A stretch of DNA of 39,120 nt, from NCBI GenBank assembly GCA_016781225.1, contig JADDQT010000001.1, forward strand, positions 10,537 to 49,656. Direction: 5' to 3'. The position numbers were made by a program, and so were the translations under genes. The DNA comes from Actinomycetota bacterium (GTDB lineage: Bacteria; Actinomycetota; Acidimicrobiia; Acidimicrobiales; GCA-2861595). The first letter of the stretch is position 1. Each line of letters opens with the position of its first letter. Below, in pieces: positions 7,263-35,300 of the stretch. The notes below the pieces were generated by a model that made no database searches, was not told the DNA's origin, and saw nothing but the letters and a program-made list of their open reading frames with translations.

Positions 7263-7346
7263 GTCGGAGTGGCGGAATAGGTAGACGCGCTAGCTTGAGG
7301 GGCTAGTGCCCGCAAGGGCGTGGGGGTTCAAGTCCCCCCTCCGACA
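7263..7346 (+). tRNA. tRNA-Leu, anticodon GAG, class II with long variable arm; no encoded CCA
   Basis: Hand fold:
- acceptor GTCGGAG/CTCCGAC plus discriminator A
- D arm GCG-GAATAGGTAGA-CGC
- anticodon stem CTAGC/GCTAG with loop TTGAGGG
- variable arm GCCC-GCAA-GGGC
- T arm GGGGG-TTCAAGT-CCCCC. Confidence 0.9.
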
Positions 7347-7462
7347 CTGGCGATACGGACACCTAGATCCGCAGTCGCCTCGACCACCTTCTCGTGCGGG
7401 TCGTACACGGCGCGGAGCCCGATCTCCTCGTAGAACGGGTGCGCAGCTTCGGATGGGTCACC
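7328..7462 (-). other. Out-of-frame (-1) conserved-looking integrase C-terminal segment, crossing the att core into the tRNA
   Basis: Reads GDPSEAAHPFYEEIGLRAVYDPHEKVVEATADLGVRIASVGGGT*. It joins the main frame at the G4 run (C-run 7461-7464 on the + strand). Confidence 0.55.
7336..7344 (+). other. attL core CCCCTCCGA (tRNA T-stem and acceptor 3' strand)
   Basis: This is the only segment shared exactly by the tRNA end, the inter-copy junction and the distal end. Confidence 0.7.
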
Positions 7463-8985
7463 CCGACCAGGCCGACCAGGCCACCGATCTCCTCGACCGC
7501 CTCGCGGATCTGCGCCTTGGTCATCCGGACCGCGTCGGCGTCCGCTGAGGCGGCTCGGAGCATCGCTTCTGCCTCCCGGCGCTCGCGCGTGACCTCGGCG
7601 ATCCACTGGCCGACGACCTTCGGGTCGGTGCCGCCGTCGAGAGCGACGCGGTAGCGCTCGAGCTTCCGGTCGCACTCCCGAATAGCTGCCTGTGCCTCGG
7701 CCCGAGCGGCGATTGACGCGTCAGTGTCAATGGCTTCGACCAGGGCGTCGCAGGTGGCATCGATGTTCTCCGGGTCGAAGATGGTCCCGAGCCAATCGTC
7801 GATGTGCGGCAGCAGATCGCGTTCGCGGAGATAGACCGCCTTCGGGTGGCGGAACTCACTCGCCGTCGCGTACTGCGCCGCATATAGGCAGCGGTAGTAC
7901 GGCTCGTCGTGGTGCCAACTGCCTTGAAGCCGCTTCCCGCACAGCCGGCAGCGAAGCCGGCCACGGAGCAGGTACGGCCGATCCGTACGCTTCGGGCGAC
8001 GCTCCTGCGGTCCACGCTTCGCCGCTTGCATCTTCACCTGGACGGCATCGAAGACCTCGCGTTCGATCAGCGGCTCGTGCGCCGGCTCGGCCGACCAGAT
8101 CCACTCGCTCTCACCGTTCCACCGCATCACCGTCCGGTGCCCCGCGCCGACGTCCTCGACGTCGACGAGTACCTCCTCACGCCGCTGCTTCGCCCAGACC
8201 TGGTAGCCGGTGTAGCGGGGATTCATGAGGATCGCCCGGACGGCGGACTTCCCCCATGCCCAGCCGTGACGGTGTGGGTTTCGCTCGCGGTCGTAGCCGC
8301 TCGGCGACGGAACACCTTCGGCGGTCAGCTGCTCGGCGATGGCGAGGTAGCCCACGCCGGCCAGGTACTCGTCGAAGATCCGTCGCACGACCGGCGCGGT
8401 GACCGGGTCGGGCTTGAGCTGATGCAGTCGCTTTCCGTCACTCGCCTTCTCTGGGTTCGGGTGCGGTCCGATGTCGCCCAGCCGGTAGCCGTACGGCGGC
8501 CGACCTCCGAGAAACCGCCCCTGCATCTCGGCCTGCGCGCTCATCGCCGTGCGAACGCGCGTCTTGATGCGTGACCGCTCGCCCTTGGACATGCCGCCGA
8601 AGAGCATCATCACCAGGTCGTGCGCCTCGGAGCCGGGATCGATGGCACCGCCAACCTCGGGAACCCAGACGGCGACGCCGTAGTGCGTGAAGACCGGGAA
8701 CGTGAGGCCGAACTGGTTGCCGTAGAAGGCCCGCTGCGGCTCGCCGATCACGACAGCCTCGAACCCGCGGGCACGCTGCGCGAGCGCGGCGAGCAGCGCC
8801 GACGCCTCCGGCCGGCGCTTCCAGGGCAGCGACCGGCTCTGTGCGACGTCGAAGAACTCTGCGACCACTGTCCCGCCGGCGGGCTCGATGAGCTGCCGGC
8901 TGCGGTGGAGCTGCCACTGCTTCGACGACTCGGGGTCCTGCTGGTCCTCGGTGCTCACCCGGCCGTAGAAGGCGAAGCGGATCAT
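7363..8985 (-). CDS. Large serine recombinase (integrase), copy 1; the 3' end is probably frameshifted
   Basis: Resolvase catalytic motif FAFYGRVSTEDQ, recombinase domain GGRPPYGYRL, zinc ribbon CRLCGKRLQG...YYRC. The last ~32 aa are Arg/Ser/Thr-rich and look out of frame. Confidence 0.85.
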   Translation of the reverse strand: MIRFAFYGRVSTEDQQDPESSKQWQLHRSRQLIEPAGGTVVAEFFDVAQSRSLPWKRRPEASALLAALAQRARGFEAVVIGEPQRAFYGNQFGLTFPVFTHYGVAVWVPEVGGAIDPGSEAHDLVMMLFGGMSKGERSRIKTRVRTAMSAQAEMQGRFLGGRPPYGYRLGDIGPHPNPEKASDGKRLHQLKPDPVTAPVVRRIFDEYLAGVGYLAIAEQLTAEGVPSPSGYDRERNPHRHGWAWGKSAVRAILMNPRYTGYQVWAKQRREEVLVDVEDVGAGHRTVMRWNGESEWIWSAEPAHEPLIEREVFDAVQVKMQAAKRGPQERRPKRTDRPYLLRGRLRCRLCGKRLQGSWHHDEPYYRCLYAAQYATASEFRHPKAVYLRERDLLPHIDDWLGTIFDPENIDATCDALVEAIDTDASIAARAEAQAAIRECDRKLERYRVALDGGTDPKVVGQWIAEVTRERREAEAMLRAASADADAVRMTKAQIREAVEEIGGLVGLVGVTHPKLRTRSTRRSGSAPCTTRTRRWSRRLRI

Positions 8986-9260
8986 CGGTTGGACCCTAGG
9001 CCGCGTCCTCGGGCGGTAGCGGTGACCGCTGGTCGCACTGCCGGCGCTTGGCTTCTCGCACCATGGCGAGCAATACGGCGGCAGCCCGAGGGCTGATGCT
9101 CGGCGGTCGGGCAGGGGAGGGCTTGACGCGTTTGCAGACGGGCTGGGATCGGGACGGTTGACGTTGGTGTCTTGTCATGCCCTGACGGTGAAGTTCGCCC
9201 CTCAACGGAAACCTCAACGGAGCTCTCAACGATCGAGCTTCCGTCGCTTCCACTCCTTCA

Positions 9261-9488
9261 TCACCGGCCCCGGGCGGTCACCGATCTTGTTGAGCGCCCT
9301 CTGGCCACCGCCGCGAAGCGCTGATAAGCCGACTGACGGGTAATGCCGAAGGCGGCACCCACGTCGGCCCAGGTAGCGCCAGCGTCACGGGCGAGTGCGA
9401 CGTACTCGCCCGCCTGATGCTTCAGCTCCTTGGCTCGCTCGTCGGCCCCTCGGGCACGACGCAGCAGCTGGCTTACGAGTGCGCTCAT
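9261..9488 (-). CDS. Small HTH DNA-binding protein (75 aa), possible regulator or excision factor
   Basis: Internal ATG 9488 is preceded by GGGGAGA. HTH segment WADVGAAFGITRQSAYQRF. It is divergent from the 9629 gene. Confidence 0.6.
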   Translation of the reverse strand: MSALVSQLLRRARGADERAKELKHQAGEYVALARDAGATWADVGAAFGITRQSAYQRFAAVARGRSTRSVTARGR

Positions 9489-9628
9489 GGGATCTCCCCG
9501 CGTCAAGGACCAGGAGAGAGCCGCAGCCGGCTCCGAGCCGAGCATCAGTGTGCCAGGAAACCCGTCGCGAATCGGGCGTCTGGAGGCACGTAGATCGTCT
9601 AGGAGCCCTCGACCCGTGGAGGTGGACC

Positions 9629-10624
9629 ATGAGCGATCACGAGATTGGGCGGAGCAAGGCAGGGGACGACCGCAGGCTCAGCGACCAGGAGAAAAATCAG
9701 CGCCTCCGATCACTCCTCACGCCCCTCGTCAACGACCTCGTCCGCGCCACTCCGGCCCATCCGCACGACCCAACCCGCCGCGTTCATCAGCCCGGCCACG
9801 ATCCTTCGCCGACGCCCTCAACGCTCCCTTCATGCAACCACACAGACTTGCCGCTTCCGCAGAGCGGAAGCAGCGGAAGCAGTCCCACCGGCGAAGGAGG
9901 GCGGCAACAGCCGACCGCCGCCGACCTGATGGAGATCCTTGACCAGACGCTCGTCATGCCGGTTGCGCCGCCCCTCCGTGATCTCGAGCCCCAGGTCGTG
10001 GTGCGGTGGGTAGAGGCTGCGTCGGAGGCACTCCTGCATCGACGCGAACGCCGCCGCCTGGTGCGCGAAGTCCTACGCGTGCTCGATGAGGAGTGGGCGA
10101 CGGCCGAGGCAGCCAAGCGGCTGCGCGAGCAGATCGCCACGTGCGAAGCGGCGCGCCGCCGGCGCGAGGCGGGCACCTACTGGCAGCACCGCGAGGCAGG
10201 CCGCCGATCCCAGCGTCCGGTGCGCGTCGAGGTGGACAGCGAGGCCTGGCGCCGAGCGAAGGAGATCGCCAGGCAGCTCGCCGTCGGTCTGGGCGAGTAC
10301 GTCGGCCAGGTCGTCCGCGATCACCTGGCCACACCGCTCGACGAGGGCGCGATCGCCCGGCTCAGCCAGACGAGGCGCCGCCAGACCACCCGTGAGCGGA
10401 TCTACTTACGGATCGACGTCTCGAGCAGTGACTGGGATGACCTGGTCGCCCGCGCTCGAAACCGCCGCACAACTCTGCTCCGCTACCTCGGAGCGCTCGT
10501 CGAGGCCACCGTCTGGGAGGAGTGTGAGCTGCGCACAGACGGGCGACCCGTTGCCTCTGGCCCGTACGATCGAACGGATGGTTACCACCGGCTGCCCGGC
10601 CGCGACGCCGATGAGCAGGCGTAG
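9629..10624 (+). CDS. Hypothetical protein with a disordered N-terminus, a coiled coil and two tandem ribbon-helix-helix-like motifs
   Basis: ATG 9629 follows GGAGGTGG. RHH-like units: VRVEVDSEAWRRAKEIARQLAVGLGEYVGQVVRDHL and RIYLRIDVSSSDWDDLVARARNRRTTLLRYLGALVEA. Confidence 0.6.
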   Translation: MSDHEIGRSKAGDDRRLSDQEKNQRLRSLLTPLVNDLVRATPAHPHDPTRRVHQPGHDPSPTPSTLPSCNHTDLPLPQSGSSGSSPTGEGGRQQPTAADLMEILDQTLVMPVAPPLRDLEPQVVVRWVEAASEALLHRRERRRLVREVLRVLDEEWATAEAAKRLREQIATCEAARRRREAGTYWQHREAGRRSQRPVRVEVDSEAWRRAKEIARQLAVGLGEYVGQVVRDHLATPLDEGAIARLSQTRRRQTTRERIYLRIDVSSSDWDDLVARARNRRTTLLRYLGALVEATVWEECELRTDGRPVASGPYDRTDGYHRLPGRDADEQA

Positions 10625-10627
10625 CAC

Positions 10628-11584
10628 GTGACGTTGCGGTGGACGGACCTCCACCCAGAGGCGGGTATGACGGCCGCACTGGATCATGCCGACGCGGAGA
10701 CATCCCGCGTCGTCATCGAAGCCGATGTCGCCCGCATTGCCGAACAAGGTCTGTCGCGCGAGCAGCGAAAGCGCGAGCGCGAGCCCCTCCGCGACATGCG
10801 GAAGCGGTGGTCAGAGCGCTTCGCGAACGGATCGGCCACGATGCTCGCGAACGAGTTGCGGGGTCATCGTGTCGTCTCGCGTCGGTTCAGGGTCGCGCCC
10901 CTTCCAGATGGAACAGGGCAGGAGTCGTTCTGGCCCCTGGGCTATCGGAGTGGCAAGCGGATCGACGTAGTGGTCGCCAGAGAGCTCGTGGGCCTCCAGC
11001 TCGGCGCGTCGCTCAAGGGATTGAACTTCCGAGACGACGAGGGCGGGAACTTCGACAAGAACCTGACCGGGCGCCTGTACGAGTTGGCCGATGAGATGAC
11101 GACGGTGCACCGCCATCTCCCTCGCGCCTTCATGGCAGGGATCTTCTTCCTGCCGATCGACGCGTGCTTCGATAAGGGACCCGGGCAGTCGTCATTCGCG
11201 CACACGGTCCTCGAACTCCGTCGGCGTTCGGATCGCGACCCAGCAGACGCGTCACAGTCCGCAAGGTGTGACTTCGCTGCGGTCGGGCTCTATGCGCCCG
11301 GAGGCGGCGTGTCGAGCGAACGAGGGATCGGAAGGGGAGTCGTCCGCTTCTTTCCCGTCGATCGACCACCTCCCCGCAGGGAGCTGCCTCCCGTCGAAAG
11401 AACACTCACCCTCGCCGAGCTGGCCGACCGCATGCTCGCCGGAGCGATCGGTGGGACTGCGGCGAGCGACGCATACGGCGATGCCGAAGACGAGCTCGCC
11501 GAGGGCGAGGAGCCGACAGCGCTCGAGGACGTCGTGCTCGCCGAAGAGGCTGGCGAGATCGACGAGATCGCGCTCGAGGAGTAG
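10628..11584 (+). CDS. Hypothetical protein, possible PD-(D/E)XK nuclease (candidate restriction endonuclease)
   Basis: GTG start 4 nt after the previous stop. Core-like pattern KRIDVVVARELVGLQLGASLKG (D...SxK). The acidic C-terminal tail is disordered. The function is a guess. Confidence 0.4.
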   Translation: MTLRWTDLHPEAGMTAALDHADAETSRVVIEADVARIAEQGLSREQRKREREPLRDMRKRWSERFANGSATMLANELRGHRVVSRRFRVAPLPDGTGQESFWPLGYRSGKRIDVVVARELVGLQLGASLKGLNFRDDEGGNFDKNLTGRLYELADEMTTVHRHLPRAFMAGIFFLPIDACFDKGPGQSSFAHTVLELRRRSDRDPADASQSARCDFAAVGLYAPGGGVSSERGIGRGVVRFFPVDRPPPRRELPPVERTLTLAELADRMLAGAIGGTAASDAYGDAEDELAEGEEPTALEDVVLAEEAGEIDEIALEE

Positions 11585-11607
11585 CTGCGGTTCGTCGCTC
11601 AGCCGCA

Positions 11608-12525
11608 TCAGCCGGCCATCCGGAACCGTTCGTAGCGCTCCTCGAGGAGTTCGCGGTTCGGGCGAGCTGCTCGTTGGCGGGGAAGCTCGATCCGCTCTAG
11701 GTGCAGCCGCTGAAGCGCATACGTCAGCGTGGGGCCGTCCTCCTCGACGAGAACGTCGGGGCGTACCTCGATCGCGTAGTCCGGCCGGACGGCCATCAGC
11801 ATGGTGTCGAAAGCGGCGTGGTGGATCTTGCACATTGCGATGCCGTTAGTCACGACTGGTTCTCCGCCGAGTGAGTCGTTCCGGATGTGGGCCGCGTCGA
11901 GGAGCTCGCGATGCCGTAGACGGCAGAAGGCACAGCGGTTCTCGTAGGCGGCCAGCACTTGAGCTCGGAACACTGGCTGCTGCAGACGTTCTTTGACAAT
12001 GCGGTCGGCATAGGCGCGGCGCAGCTCGATCACGACGGCGTCGTGGGTGTCTCCCCACGTGTGAAGCTGCTCTGGGTCCAGCGCAACGACGAACTGGTGC
12101 TGCTCTGGCTCTTCGGCGACGAGCCACACCGGGAACACCGGTAGATACAGGCCCGGAGCGAGCCCTTGAAACCAGATGAGAGGGAGCTGGCGTTCCATGG
12201 CCTTGCGAAGGGCGACGTTTTCCGGGTGGCTCGCGTTCCTCCCACGCCATTTGTACCGCTGGTAGCCGTCGACCCCGCGTTCATCGGCATAAGGCCGCTG
12301 GTCCGGGCTAGAGGCGAACACCGTCCTGAAGCTCAACGCCGCATCGAGCATGCGCGGCTTTCGGATGCCCCTCTGGATGTCCATGAGAGGGATTCGCTCG
12401 CCGTCGAGCACGAAGCCCGCCACGTCTTCGTGTCGCACCGGTCCGCCGGTGCGCAGTTGGACGGCCCGGAGGTGGGCGAGAGCCGAGGAGCGCAACCGCT
12501 CGTCGAACTCCTCGTCCATGGCCAC
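11608..12525 (-). CDS. HNH nuclease (HNH_2 / COG3440-like predicted restriction endonuclease) with an SRA-like N-terminal domain
   Basis: HNH segment CAFCRLRHRELLDAAHIRND...NGIAMCKIHHAAFD. The N-terminal YADERGVDGYQRYKWRGRNASHPENVALRKA resembles the YDG/SRA signature. Confidence 0.65.
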   Translation of the reverse strand: MAMDEEFDERLRSSALAHLRAVQLRTGGPVRHEDVAGFVLDGERIPLMDIQRGIRKPRMLDAALSFRTVFASSPDQRPYADERGVDGYQRYKWRGRNASHPENVALRKAMERQLPLIWFQGLAPGLYLPVFPVWLVAEEPEQHQFVVALDPEQLHTWGDTHDAVVIELRRAYADRIVKERLQQPVFRAQVLAAYENRCAFCRLRHRELLDAAHIRNDSLGGEPVVTNGIAMCKIHHAAFDTMLMAVRPDYAIEVRPDVLVEEDGPTLTYALQRLHLERIELPRQRAARPNRELLEERYERFRMAG

Positions 12526-12733
12526 GGAGGCGGACTGTAACCACGGCTTGGGCTGATCGCCGAGATCCGCGCCTATGAGGGGGGCGACGACCTATTGTCA
12601 GCTCAGCCTCGTTCCGGCCGCGGGTATCTCGCGGTCGGCGATCGACTGGAGTCGAGCTCTCGGGCAGCAGCGGCGCGGCCGCCCCGCGATGGAGGCCCTC
12701 GTGTGACGAGGCGAGATCGACGGGGGTAGCCCC

Positions 12734-14005
12734 ATGGCCCGATGTGGCGCTGTATCGCTTCAGAAGTCCCTCTTTGCATCCTTGGGACGGGATGGCCTCG
12801 ATGCTGAGTTTCATCGATGTAATTTGGGTCCCGTGGGTAACGTCGCCGGGTTCACGGTCGCCGCGCTGTTCGCCGGAATCGGTGGCATCGAGCGCGGCCT
12901 CGAGAAGGTCGGCGGACATACCGAACTCCTCTGCGAGAACTGGGATCCAGCAGTCGCCGTTCTCGGCGAGCGTTTCCCGGACGTGCCAATGGTGGGGGAC
13001 GTCAGGGATCTACGGTCGCTGCCGAAGGTCGACGTGGTCACGGCGGGCTTCCCGTGCACCGACCTCTCTCAGGCGGGGCGGACGAAAGGGATCCAGGGCA
13101 ACGCGTCCGGCCTCGTCGCCGAGGTGTTCCGTCTTCTGAAGCGCACCAAGGCCCCTGTACTGCTCCTCGAGAATGTGCGGAACATGCTCGTTCTCGACGG
13201 GGGCAAGGCCATGCGGTACCTCGTTGCGGAACTTGAGGCCCTCGGCTACCGCTGGGCCTATCGTCTCGTCGACTCTCGCTTTACGGGAGTCCCTCAGCGG
13301 CGCCAGCGCGTCATCTTCGTGGCAGCAAGGGAAATCGATCCACGGGCAGTGCTGTTCGCCGATGATGCGGGTGAGCCGGACGCCGAGCGTTACAGCGACG
13401 CGTGCTTCGGGTTCTACTGGACCGAGGGGCTGCGCGGCCTCGGATGGGCGAAGGACGCGGTGCCTACGCTCAAGGGCGGGTCCACGATCGGCATACCCTC
13501 GCCGCCGGCAATATGGGCGCCGAACAACCAGCTCGGTCTCCGTCTGGTCACTCCCGCGATCGAAGATGCCGAGGAACTACAGGGATTCGAACCTGGGTGG
13601 ACCGAGCCGGCCGAGCTGGTCACCAAGCGGCGTGGGACCCGCTGGAAGTTGATCGGTAACGCCGTCACCGTCGGCGTGTCGACGTGGTTTGGTCGGCGAT
13701 TGGCCGATCCGGGAGAGCCATTCCTCGAGGGAGCGGCGGTTCAGTCGGGCGACCGATGGCCCAACGCCGCGTTCGGGGCCTCCGGCAAGGCGTGGGCGGT
13801 TGACGTGTCGATGTGGCCCACACACCAGCCATACCGTCATCTCGCGGAAGTGATGGATCTCCTGCGCGCGACACCTGTGTCTGCGCGAGGCGCTGGGGGC
13901 TTCCTTTCGCGTGCGCAGCGTGGAAGCCTTCGGTTCATGGATGGCTTCCTAGAGGATGTCGCCGAGCACGTCCGCTTCATGAACGAGGAACTGTTTGGCG
14001 CCTGA
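12734..14005 (+). CDS. dcm: DNA (cytosine-5)-methyltransferase; the start is uncertain (ATG 12734 or GTG 12833)
   Basis: Motif I LFAGIGG, motif IV GFPCTDLSQAG, motif VI LLLENVRNM, motif VIII QRRQRV, motif X LIGNAVTV. Confidence 0.9.
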   Translation: MARCGAVSLQKSLFASLGRDGLDAEFHRCNLGPVGNVAGFTVAALFAGIGGIERGLEKVGGHTELLCENWDPAVAVLGERFPDVPMVGDVRDLRSLPKVDVVTAGFPCTDLSQAGRTKGIQGNASGLVAEVFRLLKRTKAPVLLLENVRNMLVLDGGKAMRYLVAELEALGYRWAYRLVDSRFTGVPQRRQRVIFVAAREIDPRAVLFADDAGEPDAERYSDACFGFYWTEGLRGLGWAKDAVPTLKGGSTIGIPSPPAIWAPNNQLGLRLVTPAIEDAEELQGFEPGWTEPAELVTKRRGTRWKLIGNAVTVGVSTWFGRRLADPGEPFLEGAAVQSGDRWPNAAFGASGKAWAVDVSMWPTHQPYRHLAEVMDLLRATPVSARGAGGFLSRAQRGSLRFMDGFLEDVAEHVRFMNEELFGA

Positions 14006-14450
14006 GCCTGTGCGTCCGGGGCGGCCAGCAGCGTCGTCGGAGGAGATCCGACTTCGGATGCAGCGTCAGGCCGGCCGGGACACGAAGCCCGAACTCGCCC
14101 TCCGCCGAGAACTGTGGCGTCGAGGATTGCGGTACCGAGTCGACCTTGCACCCATCAGTGGGCTTCCTCGTCGAGCCGACATGGTCTTCAGCCGCGCACG
14201 AGTCGCTGTCTACGTGGACGGGTGTTACTGGCACAGCTGCCCGGATCACGCCACGGTCCCGAAGGCCAACCGCGACTGGTGGGTCGCGAAGCTTGAGGCG
14301 AACGTGAAGCGTGATCGTGACACCGATGCTCGATTGCGATGGGCGGGTTGGGAGGTGGTGCGCGTGTGGGAGCACGAGACGATCGTCGACGCGGCAGATC
14401 GGATCGAGTCCGTCGCGCGCGAGCGACCTGGCAGCGCCGGGAGCGGATGA
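13995..14450 (+). CDS. vsr: Very-short-patch repair endonuclease Vsr
   Basis: Segments DTKPELALRRELWRRGLRYRV, VAVYVDGCYWHSCPDH and NRDWWVAKLEANVKRD. It overlaps the dcm 3' end by 11 nt (TTG 13995; alternative GTG 14010). Confidence 0.9.
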   Translation: MAPEPVRPGRPAASSEEIRLRMQRQAGRDTKPELALRRELWRRGLRYRVDLAPISGLPRRADMVFSRARVAVYVDGCYWHSCPDHATVPKANRDWWVAKLEANVKRDRDTDARLRWAGWEVVRVWEHETIVDAADRIESVARERPGSAGSG

Positions 14451-14524
14451 TGTTCAGCACCCTGACGGGACCCCGTTTGGTGGTCCACCCGCTATGAGAG
14501 TGGTCCATGGGTGACACCCGGCCT

Positions 14525-15421
14525 CTAGGACGCCCGTAGAGGCGCCGGAAGGTCCGGGGATGGGTTGGGAGTGCCGACGAATTGATCGTCGACCTCCCAT
14601 CTTGTTTGGTACTCGGCGGGGGTGAGCCCATCGAGGGCCGAGTGAGGCCGGTAGGTGTTGTACTCGATCCTCCAGGCCTCGATGAGGACCTGCGCCTCGG
14701 CGAGGGAGCCGAACTCCTCGGTGTTGAGCAGCTCGTCTCGCACCCGGCCGTTGAACGACTCGACGTAGGGGTTCTGCCACGGTGAGCCGGGCTCTATGTA
14801 GATGGTCCCGGTGCCGGCCAGGCGGCACCACTCCCGAAGGGCCCAGGCCACGAGCTCGGGTCCGTTGTCCATGCGCAGATGCGCCGGTGCGCCTCGCTCG
14901 GCCACCAGGGCCTCGATGGTGGCCACCACCTCATCGGCGTCGCAGGATCGCCCCACCCGCATGGCCAGGGCTTCACTGCTGTGCTCGTCGACGATGTTCA
15001 ACAGCTTGAGCCTCCTCTGATCGGCGGTCTCGTCGAACTGAAAGTCCAGGGCCCACACGTCATTGGGATGTTCAGCCCTCCGGCGCTCCGCGGTGCTGGC
15101 GTGGGTCCGGCGGCGCTTGTGGCAGTGCTGGGGTCGGCGCAGGCCCTCCTCCCTCCACAGGCGCTGCGTGCGCTTGCGGTTGATGACCCAGCCCTCTCGG
15201 CGAAGGAGGCGATGGGCCGCCTTCCAGCCCCAGCGAGGATGGCGGCGGGCGATGTCTCGCAGACGGCGACGCAGCTTGTCCTCCTCGGCCGGACGAGGCC
15301 GGCACGGCTTGCGCTGGGTGGAGCGCTGCTGGCCCACCACTCGATAGGCCCGGCGTTCGGAGACCCCGAAGCGCTCCTGTAGGACCACGACGGCCCTGCG
15401 GCGGCGCTTCGGGGTCACCAT
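14525..15421 (-). CDS. IS3-family transposase OrfB (DDE/rve integrase core)
   Basis: Segments WALDFQFDE, LRMDNGPELV and PGSPWQNPYVESFNGRVRDE. Its ATG overlaps the orfA stop (ATGGTGA). Confidence 0.9.
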   Translation of the reverse strand: MVTPKRRRRAVVVLQERFGVSERRAYRVVGQQRSTQRKPCRPRPAEEDKLRRRLRDIARRHPRWGWKAAHRLLRREGWVINRKRTQRLWREEGLRRPQHCHKRRRTHASTAERRRAEHPNDVWALDFQFDETADQRRLKLLNIVDEHSSEALAMRVGRSCDADEVVATIEALVAERGAPAHLRMDNGPELVAWALREWCRLAGTGTIYIEPGSPWQNPYVESFNGRVRDELLNTEEFGSLAEAQVLIEAWRIEYNTYRPHSALDGLTPAEYQTRWEVDDQFVGTPNPSPDLPAPLRAS

Positions 15422-15693
15422 TTTCCCTCGGCCAGCTCCTTGAGCGTGGCCTTGTCCAGCTCAGCGTCGGCCAGCAGGCGCTTCAGCCGACCGTTCTCCG
15501 ACTCGAGCTCCCGCAGGCGCTTGGCCTCGGAGGCCTTCATGCCCCCGTACTGGTTGCGCCAGCGGTTCCAGGTGGCTTCGGACACCTCGAGGTGGCGGAG
15601 CACCTCGGTGAGGTCCTTGCCGTCGTTGAGCAGCCGCTCACCCTCGCGGAGCTTGCGCACGACCTGCTCGGGGGTGTGGCGGTGTCGCTTCAT
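15415..15693 (-). CDS. IS3-family transposase OrfA (HTH plus leucine zipper)
   Basis: MKRHRHTPEQVVRKLREGERLL... The slippery heptamer G_GGA_AAA sits just before the stop. A -1 shift gives the fusion ...LAEGKMVTPKRRR. Confidence 0.85.
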   Translation of the reverse strand: MKRHRHTPEQVVRKLREGERLLNDGKDLTEVLRHLEVSEATWNRWRNQYGGMKASEAKRLRELESENGRLKRLLADAELDKATLKELAEGKW

Positions 15694-15976
15694 CGTGGTC
15701 AGTCCCTTCATGCCCAGATCCTGGGCGTCGGACTCCCACAGTTGGTGGACCACTTTCCGGGGGCCCCGTCAACCCCACCGGGCGTCCCGAGTGGCGGGCA
15801 AGGTTCGAGCAGGAGGACGCCGCGTCCGCGAGAAGTCGTCTTCTACTTTCAAGGCTTAGAAGGACGCCACACTGTGGCCGCCCGATCGTCCAGGACGCCT
15901 GCACGCTCGAGGAGACGGTGGAAACCCTTGGTGCGAGCCCTCGGCTCCGCGCGACGTTGTCTGGGCGCACCCTGAG

Positions 15977-15993
15977 CGGGCCCTCACGGCCCG
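15977..15993 (-). terminator. GC hairpin (CGGGCC-CTCAC-GGCCCG) directly after the GHKL gene stop
   Basis: 6-bp perfect stem abutting the stop codon at 15994-15996. There is no U-tract. Confidence 0.3.
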
Positions 15994-26503: not shown

Positions 26504-26711
26504 GGAGGCGGACTGTAACCACGGCTTGGGCTGATCGCCGAGATCCGCGCCTATGAGGGGGGCGACGACCTATTGTCAGCTCAGCCTCGTTCCGGCCGCG
26601 GGTATCTCGCGGTCGGCGATCGACTGGAGTCGAGCTCTCGGGCAGCAGCGGCGCGGCCGCCCCGCGATGGAGGCCCTCGTGTGACGAGGCGAGATCGACG
26701 GGGGTAGCCCC

Positions 26712-27983: not shown

Positions 27984-28428
27984 GCCTGTGCGTCCGGGGC
28001 GGCCAGCAGCGTCGTCGGAGGAGATCCGACTTCGGATGCAGCGTCAGGCCGGCCGGGACACGAAGCCCGAACTCGCCCTCCGCCGAGAACTGTGGCGTCG
28101 AGGATTGCGGTACCGAGTCGACCTTGCACCCATCAGTGGGCTTCCTCGTCGAGCCGACATGGTCTTCAGCCGCGCACGAGTCGCTGTCTACGTGGACGGG
28201 TGTTACTGGCACAGCTGCCCGGATCACGCCACGGTCCCGAAGGCCAACCGCGACTGGTGGGTCGCGAAGCTTGAGGCGAACGTGAAGCGTGATCGTGACA
28301 CCGATGCTCGATTGCGATGGGCGGGTTGGGAGGTGGTGCGCGTGTGGGAGCACGAGACGATCGTCGACGCGGCAGATCGGATCGAGTCCGTCGCGCGCGA
28401 GCGACCTGGCAGCGCCGGGAGCGGATGA
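27973..28428 (+). CDS. vsr: Vsr endonuclease, copy 2
   Basis: Identical to 13995..14450. Confidence 0.9.
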   Translation: MAPEPVRPGRPAASSEEIRLRMQRQAGRDTKPELALRRELWRRGLRYRVDLAPISGLPRRADMVFSRARVAVYVDGCYWHSCPDHATVPKANRDWWVAKLEANVKRDRDTDARLRWAGWEVVRVWEHETIVDAADRIESVARERPGSAGSG

Positions 28429-28502
28429 TGTTCAGCACCCTGACGGGACCCCGTTTGGTGGTCCACCCGCTATGAGAGTGGTCCATGGGTGACACCCGGC
28501 CT

Positions 28503-29399
28503 CTAGGACGCCCGTAGAGGCGCCGGAAGGTCCGGGGATGGGTTGGGAGTGCCGACGAATTGATCGTCGACCTCCCATCTTGTTTGGTACTCGGCGGGGG
28601 TGAGCCCATCGAGGGCCGAGTGAGGCCGGTAGGTGTTGTACTCGATCCTCCAGGCCTCGATGAGGACCTGCGCCTCGGCGAGGGAGCCGAACTCCTCGGT
28701 GTTGAGCAGCTCGTCTCGCACCCGGCCGTTGAACGACTCGACGTAGGGGTTCTGCCACGGTGAGCCGGGCTCTATGTAGATGGTCCCGGTGCCGGCCAGG
28801 CGGCACCACTCCCGAAGGGCCCAGGCCACGAGCTCGGGTCCGTTGTCCATGCGCAGATGCGCCGGTGCGCCTCGCTCGGCCACCAGGGCCTCGATGGTGG
28901 CCACCACCTCATCGGCGTCGCAGGATCGCCCCACCCGCATGGCCAGGGCTTCACTGCTGTGCTCGTCGACGATGTTCAACAGCTTGAGCCTCCTCTGATC
29001 GGCGGTCTCGTCGAACTGAAAGTCCAGGGCCCACACGTCATTGGGATGTTCAGCCCTCCGGCGCTCCGCGGTGCTGGCGTGGGTCCGGCGGCGCTTGTGG
29101 CAGTGCTGGGGTCGGCGCAGGCCCTCCTCCCTCCACAGGCGCTGCGTGCGCTTGCGGTTGATGACCCAGCCCTCTCGGCGAAGGAGGCGATGGGCCGCCT
29201 TCCAGCCCCAGCGAGGATGGCGGCGGGCGATGTCTCGCAGACGGCGACGCAGCTTGTCCTCCTCGGCCGGACGAGGCCGGCACGGCTTGCGCTGGGTGGA
29301 GCGCTGCTGGCCCACCACTCGATAGGCCCGGCGTTCGGAGACCCCGAAGCGCTCCTGTAGGACCACGACGGCCCTGCGGCGGCGCTTCGGGGTCACCAT
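28503..29399 (-). CDS. IS3 transposase OrfB, copy 2
   Basis: Identical to 14525..15421. Confidence 0.9.
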   Translation of the reverse strand: MVTPKRRRRAVVVLQERFGVSERRAYRVVGQQRSTQRKPCRPRPAEEDKLRRRLRDIARRHPRWGWKAAHRLLRREGWVINRKRTQRLWREEGLRRPQHCHKRRRTHASTAERRRAEHPNDVWALDFQFDETADQRRLKLLNIVDEHSSEALAMRVGRSCDADEVVATIEALVAERGAPAHLRMDNGPELVAWALREWCRLAGTGTIYIEPGSPWQNPYVESFNGRVRDELLNTEEFGSLAEAQVLIEAWRIEYNTYRPHSALDGLTPAEYQTRWEVDDQFVGTPNPSPDLPAPLRAS

Positions 29400-29671
29400 T
29401 TTCCCTCGGCCAGCTCCTTGAGCGTGGCCTTGTCCAGCTCAGCGTCGGCCAGCAGGCGCTTCAGCCGACCGTTCTCCGACTCGAGCTCCCGCAGGCGCTT
29501 GGCCTCGGAGGCCTTCATGCCCCCGTACTGGTTGCGCCAGCGGTTCCAGGTGGCTTCGGACACCTCGAGGTGGCGGAGCACCTCGGTGAGGTCCTTGCCG
29601 TCGTTGAGCAGCCGCTCACCCTCGCGGAGCTTGCGCACGACCTGCTCGGGGGTGTGGCGGTGTCGCTTCAT
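29393..29671 (-). CDS. IS3 transposase OrfA, copy 2
   Basis: Identical to 15415..15693. Confidence 0.85.
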   Translation of the reverse strand: MKRHRHTPEQVVRKLREGERLLNDGKDLTEVLRHLEVSEATWNRWRNQYGGMKASEAKRLRELESENGRLKRLLADAELDKATLKELAEGKW

Positions 29672-29954
29672 CGTGGTCAGTCCCTTCATGCCCAGATCCT
29701 GGGCGTCGGACTCCCACAGTTGGTGGACCACTTTCCGGGGGCCCCGTCAACCCCACCGGGCGTCCCGAGTGGCGGGCAAGGTTCGAGCAGGAGGACGCCG
29801 CGTCCGCGAGAAGTCGTCTTCTACTTTCAAGGCTTAGAAGGACGCCACACTGTGGCCGCCCGATCGTCCAGGACGCCTGCACGCTCGAGGAGACGGTGGA
29901 AACCCTTGGTGCGAGCCCTCGGCTCCGCGCGACGTTGTCTGGGCGCACCCTGAG

Positions 29955-29971
29955 CGGGCCCTCACGGCCCG
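29955..29971 (-). terminator. GC hairpin after the GHKL gene, copy 2
   Basis: Identical to 15977..15993. Confidence 0.3.
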
Positions 29972-31774
29972 TCAGTCCGCGTCCGCTGTGAACAGGATGT
30001 CGGAGAGATCGACTGCTGCCGAATCCTGGATCGTCCCGAGGAGTTCCCACAGGTACTCGGAGATGTCGGTGGTGCCGTCCCAGTTCGCCCGCACGTCGTA
30101 TGCCTGGATCACTTCGACGAAACGGCTGAAGACGTAGTCACGCCATCTCGCGCTCTTGGCGCCCTCGTCCTGGAGCATCCGCTCGGCGAGTGGGCGCTGC
30201 GCGTTGATCCACCACAGGTTGGCCTCGACATCATGGGTCCGCTGGTACACCACCGGCTGACGAGGATGGAGAGTGAACACCTCGCCAGAGTCGGGGTCAG
30301 GGTCGTATCCGGAGATCCGAATCTCTGGGAAGCGCGGCACGCTCTTCTTCTTGTCACCGGCACCACCACCGCCAGTCTGCGTGCCACTGCCGCCCGAACC
30401 CGCGCCGCCGCCGCCACCTCCACCGCCGGATCCGCCCTTCTTGTCATGGAACTCGCCCGGGCCGCCGGCGCCGCCACCACCCGTGCCGCCTTCGCCTGCG
30501 CCTTCGCCCTTACCCACGCTCACCATCACCTCGCGGGCGCGAAGGAACTTGTTCTTCCAGCGGTTCAAGCGGTTTGACAGCGCTTGGTTCTCGTTTTCTT
30601 CCCGAGCCCGTCGCTTTGCGTTCTCCTCCTTGGCCAGCTCGTCGGAGAGATCATCTATGCGTAACGCAACCCACTCGAGGATCGCGTCGGTCATAGGGTT
30701 CGCTACGAGATGGACACGGTCGTTGGTCTTCAGCCCGTGATCCTCAAGCACCGGAGCGTCGAGCGCTCCGTAGATGAAGTCGGCGCCTGCTCGGTTCCGG
30801 ATTGGCAGTTCGCCGACCCGATAGCTGGCGATGATCAGGCCGTTACGTCCCTTGACGTCGATCGCATGAGTCGGATCGCGGCGTGTAAATGGGTCGAAGG
30901 CAACACGAAGCGTTAGCTCACCAGCCTTTGGCTTGTCGGTGAGGGTGAAGACGTCATCCCCGCTCTTCAGCTCGGCTGGCAGGTCATACGATCGGCCCTC
31001 CTCGTAACCCGGTCGATCGGGGATCGCGGGGAGACGGAGAGGGTCAATGATCCTGTCACCGTCAGAGAACGCGACATGTGCTCGTTCGAGGACTTGCTTT
31101 GCCTGCGGATCCGCGAGGAGCTTCAACTCGAAGGCCTCACTCCGGCTCCATTGTGCGGGATGACGCAACCCTCGTCCTCGTACGATTGTGAAATGACACA
31201 TCTGCGGGTCGTCGGAGGCCACGGCGGGTCGAACCGCATCAGGCAGGTCGCCGCAAGTCGGGGCGAGCCCGGCGATCGCTCGCGCTCGGTCCGGTGAGAC
31301 CGTGGCGCCTCGGTAGCGTTCGTCGAAGCCGTATTGCTTGCTCTCGTCGAATCCGAAGACCGTGATGCGCCCGTCGCGGTAGGTGATGAACTCTGATCGC
31401 TTGAAGTTCTCCCGCATGTGGAACTTGCCGCCGTTTCCGTGCCCGCCAAAGCCGGCGAAGTCGGCACGGCCGCGGCTTGCGGCGACGTCTGAACCCCACC
31501 GCTTGAGGTGTTCGTCTATCTCCTCGTAGGTCGCTCCGATGAAGTCGATGCACTCCATCACGCCATCCGTGCCGGCACGCGACGTCGGGGTCTCGACGTG
31601 CATGACGATGAACGGGACGCCTGGCTCATCCATGCGAACGGCCTGGTCGTACGCGTTCTTGAGCCACTCTGCGGCGCCTGCAGCGTACTTCCCTTGGAAC
31701 TGTGCGCCGAGAAGGTCGAGCACGCGCTCCTTGTCCATCTCGGCTTCCTGATGCGCAATTGCAAAGTCAGTCAT
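29972..31774 (-). CDS. GHKL ATPase, copy 2
   Basis: Identical to 15994..17796. Confidence 0.7.
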   Translation of the reverse strand: MTDFAIAHQEAEMDKERVLDLLGAQFQGKYAAGAAEWLKNAYDQAVRMDEPGVPFIVMHVETPTSRAGTDGVMECIDFIGATYEEIDEHLKRWGSDVAASRGRADFAGFGGHGNGGKFHMRENFKRSEFITYRDGRITVFGFDESKQYGFDERYRGATVSPDRARAIAGLAPTCGDLPDAVRPAVASDDPQMCHFTIVRGRGLRHPAQWSRSEAFELKLLADPQAKQVLERAHVAFSDGDRIIDPLRLPAIPDRPGYEEGRSYDLPAELKSGDDVFTLTDKPKAGELTLRVAFDPFTRRDPTHAIDVKGRNGLIIASYRVGELPIRNRAGADFIYGALDAPVLEDHGLKTNDRVHLVANPMTDAILEWVALRIDDLSDELAKEENAKRRAREENENQALSNRLNRWKNKFLRAREVMVSVGKGEGAGEGGTGGGGAGGPGEFHDKKGGSGGGGGGGGAGSGGSGTQTGGGGAGDKKKSVPRFPEIRISGYDPDPDSGEVFTLHPRQPVVYQRTHDVEANLWWINAQRPLAERMLQDEGAKSARWRDYVFSRFVEVIQAYDVRANWDGTTDISEYLWELLGTIQDSAAVDLSDILFTADAD

Positions 31775-32396
31775 CGTCGGGGCCCCTTGAGGTCTTCCGG
31801 GCAATGATGTCGGCGAACCGGTCTCGGAGGAACTCGTCCACGGCGACGAGTTCCTTCGCTCCGGGTGTGTCCGTCGTCACGGCTTCGTCGAGCGCACGAC
31901 GTGTCTGAGCAAGCCGGCTCTCGAAGTCGCGGGCGGGCGCACGCACGCTCGTGCGATAGAACGCAAAGAAGTCTGTGTCCAGGATGTCGTCCGTCTGGCC
32001 GGCGAGGAAGAGCTGGGTAGCCGTCGCCCGCTCGAGGTGCTGCAACTCCTGGCTACCACTCCTACTCATCCGGCCTGTTGATGCTGGGCCCTGGGTATCC
32101 GCGTCCGAGAACAACGTCGCCGCGAGATCCCAGCCAGCGTTGGTCAGCTTGAACTTCTTCTGGCGTGTCGGACCTGTCGCGACCAGGCCGCCGGACTTCA
32201 GTTCCTTGTAAAGGGAAACGTGAATGTCGCTCGCGTCGGGAAAGCGATCGGAGTAACCGCGAAGCCCGAAGTCATCCGGGTACAACTCCCACGCCTTGAC
32301 GACGATGTCCTCATACGTCATAAGGCGAGGCCCGTCCGGCGAGAGGGCATAAAGCGCCTCAAGGATCTTGCGCGGGCGTCCGCCGAGCTTTGCCAT
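31767..32396 (-). CDS. Winged-helix hypothetical protein, copy 2
   Basis: Identical to 17789..18418. Confidence 0.6.
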   Translation of the reverse strand: MAKLGGRPRKILEALYALSPDGPRLMTYEDIVVKAWELYPDDFGLRGYSDRFPDASDIHVSLYKELKSGGLVATGPTRQKKFKLTNAGWDLAATLFSDADTQGPASTGRMSRSGSQELQHLERATATQLFLAGQTDDILDTDFFAFYRTSVRAPARDFESRLAQTRRALDEAVTTDTPGAKELVAVDEFLRDRFADIIARKTSRGPDDD

Positions 32397-32398
32397 CG

Positions 32399-33910
32399 TC
32401 AGCCGCCCCGAGCTCGCCGACGAGCCGCGCCGAACAATCGGAGCACATCTCGGTCCCCACGGGCGGCGAGTAGCTCCTCGACCTCACCAAGCTGCGCGTG
32501 CGGCGAAAGGCCGATCCCAGTCGCGCATGCCGAGAGCCATGCGTGGTCGTCGCTCGTCTGACCCAGCCGAAGTAGGAGCTCTTGTTCGGCGTCGGCCGCG
32601 CTCAGGTCAACCTGACGGACGAGTCGGAAGCCGAGGCGGCCAGTGTCATAGGCGACGACGAACAAGTAGTCGCCCTCGGCGGCGCCAAGGGACTCAGCGA
32701 CATGGCGAAGCGATCCGATTCCAGGCGACTGAGAAGGCCAATACATCGGGATGTCACCGAACTCGGATGAGAACTTGAGCCTGCCTCCGGGGAGGAGCCT
32801 CAACAGCGCGGCGAACGCCTCCGGGACGATGTGTCCGCTCCCGCGGAGGGTGTCGTGCGTAACGAGATGCCTCCAGGCCCAAACCCCTTCGATGACGACG
32901 CAGTCGCCCGCCTCCTCTAGTGCTGTATCCGGCACGTAAGGCTCATCCTCACGCCGCAAGCGAACCCAGACGCCGTCCCGGACGAACCGCGGATGCGTCA
33001 CGCTCATGATCTCCACCGAAGCTGCGACGATCCCGAACTTCTCGTCGAGGATCCGCTTCAGGCGCTCGATCGGCATCCCGTGTGGCAGCCCCCCAAGTTC
33101 GTCGGCCATCTCGGCGGCGATGCTCTTGTACCGTTCACCGCCCCACTCCGACAGCCCCCACCTGCGGGGACCCCGCCGCTGAAACCGATCTTCGCTACCG
33201 AGGTAGTTCTTGAGCGTCGTAAGCGAGCCTTCGCCGATGTGCTCGTGGATCTCCTCGGCTGTCATGAGCCGGCGCTTCAGAGCGAGCACGACCGCGGCCT
33301 TGTCTCCGAGCGTGCCCGACCACGGCACGACCTTCTCATCGACGATACGGATGTCGCGGCGCGCTCGAAGCGCTTGAAGCTGGTGATCGTCGTGGATACC
33401 CAAGCTGCGCATCGAACGACGCACTTCCACAAGCGGAACGGGCCCCGAGGCGGTCTCGGCGAGGGCAGCACGGAGAGCGGTGTCGAACTTGGCTGACATC
33501 ATTGTTTCGGCCGCCACCTGGTATGGGCCGGCCAGGAAGAGCAGCAGATGCACTTCGGTCGGGAGCACGGTCGCGTTGAGATCAACGCCGATGGCGTCGG
33601 CTAGGTCCGTCCTCGAGAAAACAAGCCCCAGGTCGAAGCGGATCCGCGTGATTACGGCGTCCACCTCCGGGATGGATTTCAGCTGTAGTAACTCCTTGAC
33701 AGCTGCTGCCTCGATCTGGCGAACGCGTTCGCGGCTGAGGTTGAACCGGTCGCCGAGCTCTTGAAGTGTCGGGATCGAAGCTCCGATTGCGAAGACTCGT
33801 TCCGCGAGGATCGTATGGGCTCGACCGTCGAGCCGGCGGAGAGCGTGCTGGATCACCGGGAGCCACTCTGATCCTTGCGCGGCGTGCCTCGACGGTGTCT
33901 CGTGGACCAT
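32399..33910 (-). CDS. Sigma-r4 HTH / HARE-HTH-like protein, copy 2
   Basis: Identical to 18421..19932. Confidence 0.65.
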   Translation of the reverse strand: MVHETPSRHAAQGSEWLPVIQHALRRLDGRAHTILAERVFAIGASIPTLQELGDRFNLSRERVRQIEAAAVKELLQLKSIPEVDAVITRIRFDLGLVFSRTDLADAIGVDLNATVLPTEVHLLLFLAGPYQVAAETMMSAKFDTALRAALAETASGPVPLVEVRRSMRSLGIHDDHQLQALRARRDIRIVDEKVVPWSGTLGDKAAVVLALKRRLMTAEEIHEHIGEGSLTTLKNYLGSEDRFQRRGPRRWGLSEWGGERYKSIAAEMADELGGLPHGMPIERLKRILDEKFGIVAASVEIMSVTHPRFVRDGVWVRLRREDEPYVPDTALEEAGDCVVIEGVWAWRHLVTHDTLRGSGHIVPEAFAALLRLLPGGRLKFSSEFGDIPMYWPSQSPGIGSLRHVAESLGAAEGDYLFVVAYDTGRLGFRLVRQVDLSAADAEQELLLRLGQTSDDHAWLSACATGIGLSPHAQLGEVEELLAARGDRDVLRLFGAARRRARGG

Positions 33911-33914
33911 CGAG

Positions 33915-34481
33915 CTACTCATTACTACCGAGGCTCTCGACGCGCTCACGTCCAGCCGGTGTGATCTCCCAGATGCCCCGCGGGGAGCCCTTCTTGATTA
34001 GACCGGCCTGGACGAGCTTCAAGCGAACGAATTGCGTCCTGTTCTTCCACCGGACGAGGCCCGAGTCGAGCACCTCGCGGTCGGCAGGCGTGAGACGGTG
34101 GTCGAGCGTGGCCCCCACGTCTTCGATCAATTCGCTTGCTGGCGCGGAGCCGCCCCGGGCAACGAGCGCCCTTAGCAGCGGCTCTTCGTACTCACGCTCC
34201 GGCAGCAGCGAACCACTTTCCGCTCGCGGTCGCGACGAACCCCTCTTGCTCTTCGTCCGGCCCCTCAGCCTCGCCGCCGACCGCGGCGTCGGTGACCTCT
34301 CCTTGGCTTTCAGTTCGGCATCGAGCTCCCGAGCGGTCGAGGCCAAGCGGCCAACGGCTCCGCTGCCATCGATCCCGAGGAGTCGACGCAGGACCGAGTT
34401 CACGTCATCGACGAGCGGTTCAGCAAGGCGTTGCAGCGCCTCGAAGACCTCGTCGTCCACGGGCGGCAGCTGGCGTGTCAT
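33915..34481 (-). CDS. Mrr_N-type winged-helix protein, copy 2
   Basis: Identical to 19937..20503. Confidence 0.65.
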   Translation of the reverse strand: MTRQLPPVDDEVFEALQRLAEPLVDDVNSVLRRLLGIDGSGAVGRLASTARELDAELKAKERSPTPRSAARLRGRTKSKRGSSRPRAESGSLLPEREYEEPLLRALVARGGSAPASELIEDVGATLDHRLTPADREVLDSGLVRWKNRTQFVRLKLVQAGLIKKGSPRGIWEITPAGRERVESLGSNE

Positions 34482-34507
34482 CAGCAGCGAGCCTTCCTTA
34501 CAGGAGT

Positions 34508-34561
34508 CATTGCAATGAGTATTGCATCCACCGCCAGCGATTGCAATCTACATTGCAATAA
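34508..34561. promoter_or_regulatory. ATTGCAAT palindrome array, copy 2
   Basis: Identical to 20530..20583. Confidence 0.55.
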
Positions 34562-34652
34562 GCTGGCCGGCGGGACCGCGAATCCAAGGCTCAGGGGAAA
34601 GCTCATGCATCGCCCCGGCCCCAGGCGGTATCAAGGTGATACCATAACCGGC

Positions 34653-34856
34653 ATGGCTATGACTCTTCGACTGACCGAGGACGAGCAGGCCGCGCTCCGG
34701 CAACGAGCAGAGCGGGAGGGCATCTCGATGCAGGACGCGGCTCGGCGAGCCGTCCGCGACTACGTCGCCAGGGGCGAGCATCGGGATCGGGTGGCGGAGG
34801 CCGCCGAGCGAGTGAAGGCTGCCCATGCTGAAGCCCTCCGACGTCTCGGGGAGTGA
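34653..34856 (+). CDS. RHH antitoxin, copy 2
   Basis: Identical to 20675..20878. Confidence 0.8.
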   Translation: MAMTLRLTEDEQAALRQRAEREGISMQDAARRAVRDYVARGEHRDRVAEAAERVKAAHAEALRRLGE

Positions 34857-35239
34857 ACGAGCCGGTCGAGTACCTGGATCTGGACGACCTCATCGAGCTC
34901 GCCTCCGGGCTCCTGGGAGACCCGCCTCCCATCCGCGACGTCGGACTGCTCGGCTCCGCCGCCGCCCGGCCTCAGACGAGTGCCTTCGGTGAGGACGCCT
35001 ACCCGGACATCTGGACCAAGGCGGCTGCGCTGCTCCAATCCATCCTCAAGAACCACGCCCTTGTTGACGGCAACAAGCGGCTCGGCTGGCTCGCCACGGC
35101 TACTTTCCTGGAGATCAACGGGATCCCGGTAACGCACATCGACAACGATGCCGTCTACGACTTCGTGATCGACGTGACGGTCGGCCACCAGGATGTCGGC
35201 GAGATTGCCAGCGGCCTTCGCCGGCTCGCGGAGCCCTGA
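34853..35239 (+). CDS. doc: Fic/Doc toxin, copy 2 (variant allele: H->Y, AGAL->ASGL near the C-terminus)
   Basis: Same as 20875..21261 apart from substitutions at 35131 (synonymous), 35156, 35210 and 35214. Confidence 0.85.
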   Translation: MNEPVEYLDLDDLIELASGLLGDPPPIRDVGLLGSAAARPQTSAFGEDAYPDIWTKAAALLQSILKNHALVDGNKRLGWLATATFLEINGIPVTHIDNDAVYDFVIDVTVGHQDVGEIASGLRRLAEP

Positions 35240-35291
35240 GACGACCTGCAGATTCACAACACCTCGATCCGTGTCCGGAAGGGGACAATCG

Positions 35292-35300
35292 CCCCTCCGA
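35292..35300 (+). other. attR core CCCCTCCGA
   Basis: The island sequence ends here and is followed by unique GACGGTCCTTACGC. Confidence 0.7.

Follow-up and report, generated by a model that had tools for sequence, protein, structure and literature searches.

In the 39,120-nucleotide stretch of acidimicrobial DNA analyzed here (the window), a 13,978-bp island carrying a large serine integrase appears twice, head to tail, at the 3′ end of a tRNA-Leu(GAG) gene. The stacking of islands at this gene is real, while the full dimer is unproven and is more likely an assembly product. We put the probability at roughly 55% that the second copy is an assembly path in which the island was traversed again in place of a 2.3-kb relic, the unit that occupies this position in a second assembly (GCA_017884105.1, the sister assembly). 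By exact-protein look-ups, the window was placed on contig JAGELH010000002.1 (49,659 bp) of assembly GCA_017884065.1, where it runs to the contig end. Because Logan short-read contigs of runs SRR12717696 and SRR12717688 match the window at 100%, its source is most likely a metagenome bin.

The units, their ends and the sites that separate them were delimited by an ungapped self-comparison of the window and are as follows.

7263-7347, plus strand: tRNA-Leu(GAG), the integration target and the sole tRNA found by ARAGORN; its last 12 nt lie within the repeated block.
7336-7344, plus strand: core 9-mer CCCCTCCGA at attL, which combines the tRNA half with the integrase-side (int-side) arm.
7336-21313: island unit 1, 13,978 bp, as defined by the self-comparison.
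7345-7842: segment a, the int-side arm plus the 3′ end of the integrase gene, 498 bp; duplicated in the sister relic, which aligns here to 21323-21820/7345-7842 with one single-nucleotide polymorphism (SNP), at 21810.
20622-21152: segment t, the tail common to the island and the sister relic; the relic aligns from 34600/20622 and has relic-specific SNPs at 20642-3.
21153-21313: E1, the doc-side end allele tied to the junction; seven differences from E2, and the same allele in the full island of the sister assembly.
21314-21322, plus strand: core 9-mer at the inter-unit junction, attP-like; the 200-kb sister contig has an identical junction.
21314-35291: island unit 2 as assembled; 21843-34599 is without a counterpart at that position in the sister assembly.
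35131-35291: E2, the doc-side end allele tied to the distal site; the sister relic ends in an identical sequence.
35292-35300, plus strand: core 9-mer at the distal site ("attR").

At an offset of 13,978 bp, positions 7336-21152 are identical to 21314-35130 (100% over 13,817 bp), and a comparison of open reading frames (ORFs) agrees with the original prediction that every island ORF recurs at +13,978. That prediction also described perfect 14-kb direct repeats, which is refuted by seven mismatches to copy 2 in the final ~170 bp before the 9-mer (21153, 21178, 21232, 21236, 21284, 21291, and 21300). Identity between the copies stops at 21322/35300, and the two doc-side ends, E1 at the junction and E2 at the distal site, are different alleles. 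The 9-mer CCCCTCCGA occurs exactly three times in the window, at 7336, 21314 and 35292, and so marks the tRNA 3′ end, the inter-copy junction and the distal end as had been stated. Its count alone is not significant (1.12 occurrences are expected, and at least three were reached in 11 of 100 shuffles); its weight comes from placement exactly at the three block boundaries. At the attP-like inter-unit junction the doc-side arm is joined to the int-side arm, and the arm composition expected of attP, also part of the earlier description, is seen directly in the sequence.

The same locus is present on the sister contig (JAGELI010000001.1, 200,543 bp), which matches window positions 9937-21820 with two SNPs (20879 and 21810), a span that takes in the island, E1, the junction and 498 bp beyond it. 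The sister contig then has 1,083 bp of sequence that is not in the window (X, 69% GC), after which it matches 34600-39120 with three SNPs and continues into an SNF2 helicase gene and housekeeping genes. Only one SNP falls in 9937-21313, at 20879. With one difference in 11.4 kb of island and none in 3.8 kb of right flank, the two assemblies appear to be essentially one strain. The second unit of the sister contig is a 2.3-kb relic that is bounded at either end by the 9-mer and composed of the 498-bp 3′ fragment of the integrase gene, X, and a 700-bp tail. In this tail, which corresponds to 34600-35300, all seven E2 variants of window copy 2 are present, along with the relic-specific variants at 34620/34621. 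The predicted full dimer is thus not reproduced in this assembly of essentially the same strain: a second full copy is not found in GCA_017884105.1, and the relic is found there. The attP-like junction, on the other hand, is chromosomal and lies between two integrated units on the 200-kb contig.

An assembly path to the second copy would depend on the sequence that the relic and the island share. These shared stretches of 498 bp and ~530 bp would create a collapsed-repeat loop in the assembly graph; once through the junction and the integrase fragment common to both units, the assembler would walk the 13-kb island body again instead of X and would then exit by the relic's own end, E2. Segments a and t are thereby candidate substrates for homologous recombination or for assembler confusion. 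We infer that both assemblies are short-read graph assemblies. An assembler such as SPAdes would be expected to traverse a simple loop once if read pairs cannot resolve it, giving flank-unit-junction-unit-flank whatever the true copy number. Copy 2 of the window is island-type at 21810 and at 34620/34621 and relic-type from 35131 onward. Position 20879/34857, which alters codon 2 of doc, is A in both window copies and G in both sister copies. This concerted difference is most simply explained as a collapsed-repeat consensus effect, with a bubble resolved differently in the two assemblies. One Logan contig of SRR12717696 (k=31; L008) ends at 20673, 30 bases past the relic-specific SNP at 20643, which indicates that the relic branch exists in the reads of this study. 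None of the Logan contigs contained a second full copy or the integrase gene at full length, and none had a gene call that ran uninterrupted through the branch point at 20643-20673.

The same variants bear on the alternative of a real dimer, which we consider possible and clearly the less probable of the two. Here, homologous recombination would have replaced X with the island body in an array of full island plus relic. One way would be gene conversion with the adjacent island, or that of the sister chromatid, as donor and with crossovers placed in the tail and the 498-bp integrase fragment; another would be duplication followed by tail-tail deletion. The right-hand crossover would lie between 34621 and 35131 and leave the relic's E2 end in place, so the island-type bases at 21810 and 34620/34621 followed by relic-type sequence from 35131 are the pattern that a shared-tail crossover predicts; however, an assembly path forces that pattern equally, and it does not discriminate. 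Direct repeats of 0.5 kb are good RecA substrates, and repeats of this length flank X. The deposited contig is without X, and island-junction-island would be the natural output if X were truly absent from the sample. Against this, a rare structural change would have to dominate one sample of the same strain, in assemblies that are otherwise near-identical, and both the 13.8 kb of perfect identity and the 20879/34857 allele shared by the copies fit a graph node used twice. Moreover, the second full copy is on the source contig alone, with no Logan contig bearing it or a gene call across 20643-20673. Homologous recombination, which the original prediction listed among the possible origins, is still a plausible contributor.

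Several observations weigh against reading the second copy as an assembly path. A graph assembler would normally output island-junction-island only if the graph lacked X, and a true absence of X fits equally well. The single exact break position of L008 is suggestive and falls short of proof, two further breaks in a Logan contig (L016, at 8602 and 11494) are unexplained, and the contigs are fragmentary. No link from run SRR12717696 to either assembly was found. If the assemblies used long reads, a second full copy could be directly supported.

The two end alleles and the metagenomic origin of the data bear on two further alternatives. In a chimera of two co-occurring strains or molecules, one strain might have a single island that ends in E2, and the linkage of E1, junction, and integrase might come from a second strain or from a free element. 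The data are metagenomic, the breaks at 8602 and 11494 in SRR12717696 are not explained by the relic and suggest microdiversity, and one element can occur in two contexts in related bins (loci L054 and L023). Yet the E1-junction linkage lies inside the 200-kb chromosomal contig of the sister assembly, so that a chromosomal array suffices to explain it, and a linkage of E1 to the flank is found in neither assembly. We therefore consider such a chimera unlikely. Still more improbable, in our estimate, is a merger of an integrated single island with its own excised circle, one of the origins named in the original prediction. The junction does have the arm composition expected of attP, but a single-copy circle would carry its own E2 end, whereas the junction carries E1, which differs at seven sites; for a single strain, the E1 junction and E2 distal end contradict this origin. 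The same junction also stands between two chromosomal units in the sister contig. Of the earlier suggestion of an assembly artefact, the artefact itself is thus retained as our leading reading, and its mechanism is changed by the sister relic from the merging of a circle to a re-traversal that replaces the relic.

The relic is old, since X and the integrase fragment, divided at the same internal boundary, recur at 97% identity in a Logan contig from an unrelated run (SRR9865947, contig SRR9865947_119035; L018). This age rules out the sister relic as a recent derivative of a full second copy, and the second copy of the window, if real, would then have arisen from the relic. At 1400-1440 of L018 the relic abuts a 23-nt tRNA-Leu 3′ fragment (GGGTTCAAGTCCCCCCTCCGACA), followed by unrelated genes, which suggests that another element, one that duplicates more of the tRNA gene, integrated next to the relic in that sample. 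By protein look-up, the 207-aa integrase fragment of the relic was found only on the sister contig, with a 219-aa relative on an unrelated Logan contig. A "207 aa" gene call also occurs at the window end; it is unrelated to that of the sister relic and coincides with it in length only. Exact look-ups of the two Doc alleles, of the 92-aa and 113-aa tail ORFs, and of a 483-aa flank gene returned only the two NCBI contigs, and a 25-mer from the int-side arm had no match in exact scans of JGI metagenome contigs and IMG/VR. GCA_017884065.1 yielded no contig with X, which is uninformative since a leftover of ~1.1 kb would probably be unbinned. Gene conversion from a third phd/doc relic, farther out in the window, was rejected as the source of E2, as that relic agrees with E1 at the variant positions.

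Beyond the distal 9-mer, the window holds the remains of what may be a further unit.

35321-36772 and 36808-38412, minus strand: SauUSI-like type IV methyl-directed restriction enzyme in two ORFs (Pfam PLDc_2, ResIII, Helicase_C, and DUF3427).
38487-38810, plus strand: degenerate third antitoxin/doc relic, 87% and 73% identical to the tail of the island and located shortly before the contig ends.

The original prediction took the distal end as attR, and as a native attR it probably does not stand. The right arm of the distal 9-mer (GACGGTCCTTACGCACG..., 35301-35340) would leave the tRNA acceptor stem mispaired, and it resembles the int-side arms of two relatives, L022 and L024, with 14/24 and 13/24 matches in register (the window-wide 99.9th percentile is 13). 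This site is therefore probably another inter-element junction rather than native tRNA flank, in which case the split SauUSI-like gene and the phd/doc fragment would be the oldest relic; the third antitoxin/doc fragment is probably the oldest relic of the stack. The two SauUSI-like ORFs match PADLOC model PDLC03659 over model positions 12-416 and 418-941, one stretch per ORF. The gene is split at about 36772-36808, identically in both assemblies, and adjoins islands that bring a C5 cytosine methyltransferase. Inactivation of this gene may have been needed to tolerate the methylase.

Stacking at this tRNA gene was considered in relation to the integrase and its relatives.

7363-8985, minus strand: large serine integrase, 540 aa (PF00239, PF07508, and PF13408), convergent with the tRNA gene.

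The original description of the unit as an integrated island with a large serine integrase at the tRNA-Leu 3′ end is supported by the presence of Resolvase, Recombinase, and Zn-ribbon domains. The catalytic domain (PF00239, residues 5-155) was matched at 5.9e-10 and 39.8 bits against a cutoff of 23.3 and the recombinase domain (PF07508) at 80.8 bits, with the zinc ribbon (PF13408) borderline at 25.8 bits against a cutoff of 25.3. The stop codon lies 16 bp from the tRNA end. No directionality factor for the integrase was identified. More than 3,870 homologs were recovered at E≤1e-10, the closest other integrase being 85% identical and from an Acidimicrobiales bin. A scan of species-representative genomes gave 186 relatives, and 80 of their loci, from Acidimicrobiales, Micromonospora, Nocardia, Frankia, Amycolatopsis, Streptomyces, and others, were fetched and examined. 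In 50 of these 80, a convergent tRNA-Leu(GAG) gene directly follows the integrase stop codon, and many of the others are contigs that end there. In the related loci, the tRNA 3′ end, ...GTGTCGGAGG, is always contributed by the int-side arm. The order tpiA ... solute-binding protein ... tRNA-Leu is common to the window and Acidimicrobiales bins. What stands firm is that this clade of large serine integrases, abundant in Actinomycetota, targets tRNA-Leu(GAG). In the literature searched, which was incomplete, no paper was found that describes actinobacterial serine integrases forming a tRNA-Leu(GAG)-specific clade. A phage origin was rejected, with no phage integrase in INPHARED above 32% identity.

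Tandem arrays are also evident among these relatives. At locus L100, two paralogous integrases (495-2140 and 10001-11706; 72% DNA identity) lie 9.5 kb apart, with a junction-type site after the outer integrase and the tRNA gene after the inner one. At L089 (11524-21125), the order is integrase, junction-type site, a 9.4-kb unit that lacks an integrase of this kind, and tRNA-Leu. The outer integrase of L049 is frameshifted (3948-5322). Units in the same orientation split by a chimeric site were thus found in the sister contig, L100, L049, and L089, and an outer unit that has decayed while keeping both ends is represented by the sister relic, with the frameshifted outer integrase of L049 as a further case of decay. 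Junction-type rather than tRNA sequence also follows the integrases of L054, L063, L031, L040, and L072. In L054 (11544-11700) and L023 (11545-11712) the same element, at 99% identity, is flanked in one case by tRNA-Leu and in the other by non-tRNA DNA on a 551-kb contig, a difference that reflects either a stacked array or a secondary site. The original prediction regarded a tandem array as unexpected for a serine integrase, but for this clade it is not unexpected, as arrays joined in the same way occur repeatedly in unrelated genomes.

The anatomy of the locus fits a model of tandem accretion in which elements integrate, decay, and are joined by a further integration. The tRNA-Leu(GAG) gene would act as a stacking site, with new units entering beside the tRNA and pushing older, decaying units outward, which would give the order tRNA-Leu, intact 14-kb defense island, attP-like junction, older unit, further junction, and oldest relic. 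We infer both the order of arrival and the means by which a serine integrase achieves stacking, for which three routes may be considered. First, a circular island could recombine homologously with the 498-bp integrase fragment of a resident relic, which would produce exactly the sister structure. Second, the integrase could mediate recombination of attP with a hybrid site; the array of diverged integrases at L100 favors this route and the behavior of canonical phage serine integrases speaks against it. Third, pre-formed arrays could be transferred. With regard to the second route, this clade may break the strict attP x attB rule by accepting the resident hybrid site (tRNA half plus older int-side arm) as a target, an idea that we hold to be speculative and rather improbable. 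The L100 integrases point to such use since, at ~72% DNA identity, they are too diverged for homologous recombination, and the distal arm of the window points the same way since it looks like an old integrase-side arm. If true, use of the hybrid site would allow serial site-specific stacking and un-stacking at tRNA-Leu(GAG), and a homo-dimer like that in the window could also come from re-integration.

Canonical large serine integrases are reported to recombine attP with attB exclusively, and this rule alone would not build the stacked arrays of this clade. The integrase shares the domain order of phage enzymes such as phiC31, Bxb1, and SPbeta SprA/YokA (catalytic domain, recombinase domain, zinc ribbon), and its closest solved structure is SPbeta YokA (PDB E-value 2e-5), although it is less than 32% identical to any INPHARED phage integrase and only very distantly related to the characterized enzymes. 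Staphylococcal cassettes such as SCCmec are stacked serially at rlmH (orfX) by CcrAB or CcrC, with repeated short site sequences and frequent integrase-less relics. The arrays described here resemble them in having a large serine recombinase, serial stacking at one site, a repeated short integration-site sequence, and integrase-less relics, and differ in their tRNA gene target and Actinomycetota host. A cassette of the staphylococcal type was rejected, since the NCBIfam CcrB/CcrC models NF047343 and NF047347 scored 25.9 and 28.8 bits against cutoffs of 900.

Accretion by integration, decay, and renewed integration is established for elements with tyrosine integrases, namely the cis-mobilizable, integrative and conjugative, and integrative and mobilizable elements (CIME-ICE/IME) of Streptococcus and the pathogenicity islands of Streptomyces (PMC5704250). 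The locus described here is like the CIME-ICE/IME arrays in its insertion at a tRNA 3′ end, in a decayed unit with its ends preserved, in the chimeric att site inside the array, and in having its youngest unit proximal to the tRNA. Those arrays, however, use tyrosine integrases and a long duplication of the tRNA 3′ end that restores the target completely, whereas here a large serine integrase is present, just 9 bases are shared by the three sites, and no conjugation or mobilization genes were detected in the island. Arrays of up to six copies of SGI1 and tandem arrays of SXT/R391 also have head-to-tail copies with attP-like internal junctions (PMC5704250). The window is similar in its head-to-tail copies at the attachment site and its attP-like internal junction, but SGI1 and SXT arrays use tyrosine integrases and have been shown experimentally, while the identical copy here is on one metagenomic contig and is contradicted by the sister assembly. 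Island arrays at tRNA genes, homo-arrays of SGI1 and SXT, and stacks of SCC cassettes are therefore already known.

By its gene content, the unit is a small defense and addiction island, site-specifically integrated. In addition to the integrase, unit 1 contains the following.

9629-11584, plus strand: two genes for proteins of 331 aa and 318 aa with no Pfam, PADLOC, or NCBIfam match.
11608-12525, minus strand: HNH_2 endonuclease, a candidate restriction enzyme (PF13391, 5e-8; PADLOC HNH, 4e-17).
12734-14005, plus strand: C5 cytosine DNA methyltransferase (PF00145, 3e-42; PADLOC MTase_II, 1.6e-127).
13995-14450, plus strand: Vsr mismatch endonuclease (PF03852, 5e-17), overlapping the methyltransferase gene.
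14467-15766, minus strand: IS3-family insertion sequence with orfA (15415-15753), orfB (14525-15421), rve and HTH_Tnp_1 domains, and 35-nt imperfect terminal inverted repeats.
15994-20503, minus strand: four-gene block for a 600-aa Gly-rich protein and proteins of 209 aa, 503 aa, and 188 aa, the last with Mrr_N.
20537-20878, plus strand: RHH antitoxin, with weak RHH matches below cutoff; 4-bp overlap with doc.
20875-21261, plus strand: Doc toxin (PF02661, 1e-15, 58.7 bits; TIGR01550 DOC_P1, 39.9 bits against a cutoff of 38.65).

The possible type II restriction-modification cargo has a clear methyltransferase with an adjacent Vsr endonuclease, and the HNH_2 protein is no more than a candidate for the cognate endonuclease. 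The toxin-antitoxin pair has the arrangement of Phd/Doc, in which a Fic-fold Doc protein is encoded together with an overlapping, small upstream antitoxin gene. The IS3-family element lies directly after vsr, with a second copy at 28445-29744. The two units and the sister assembly all carry it in identical form, so its insertion predates whatever produced the second unit. The four-gene block (second copy 29972-34481, both on the minus strand) is possibly an uncharacterized defense module without a family assignment, the 503-aa protein of which has a sigma70 region-4 or weak MzaA-like tail. Domain searches detected no conjugation, mobilization, or phage structural genes among the island genes.

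A recent or selected 14-kb perfect dimer formed by a serine integrase would be unusual, but the dimer itself is doubtful. For genome mining this is a reason for caution, as long identical tandem repeats in metagenome bins can result from default traversal of a loop, and read-level support is needed before amplification is claimed. What is solid is that islands of this integrase clade, in the window one with a methylase, Vsr, and HNH protein together with a toxin-antitoxin system, pile up in tandem with their decaying predecessors. If this stacking is driven by the integrase, it would bear on the directionality rule behind the appeal of serine integrases as genome-engineering tools, and it would add a natural family of tRNA-specific enzymes with many examples of attP and attB.

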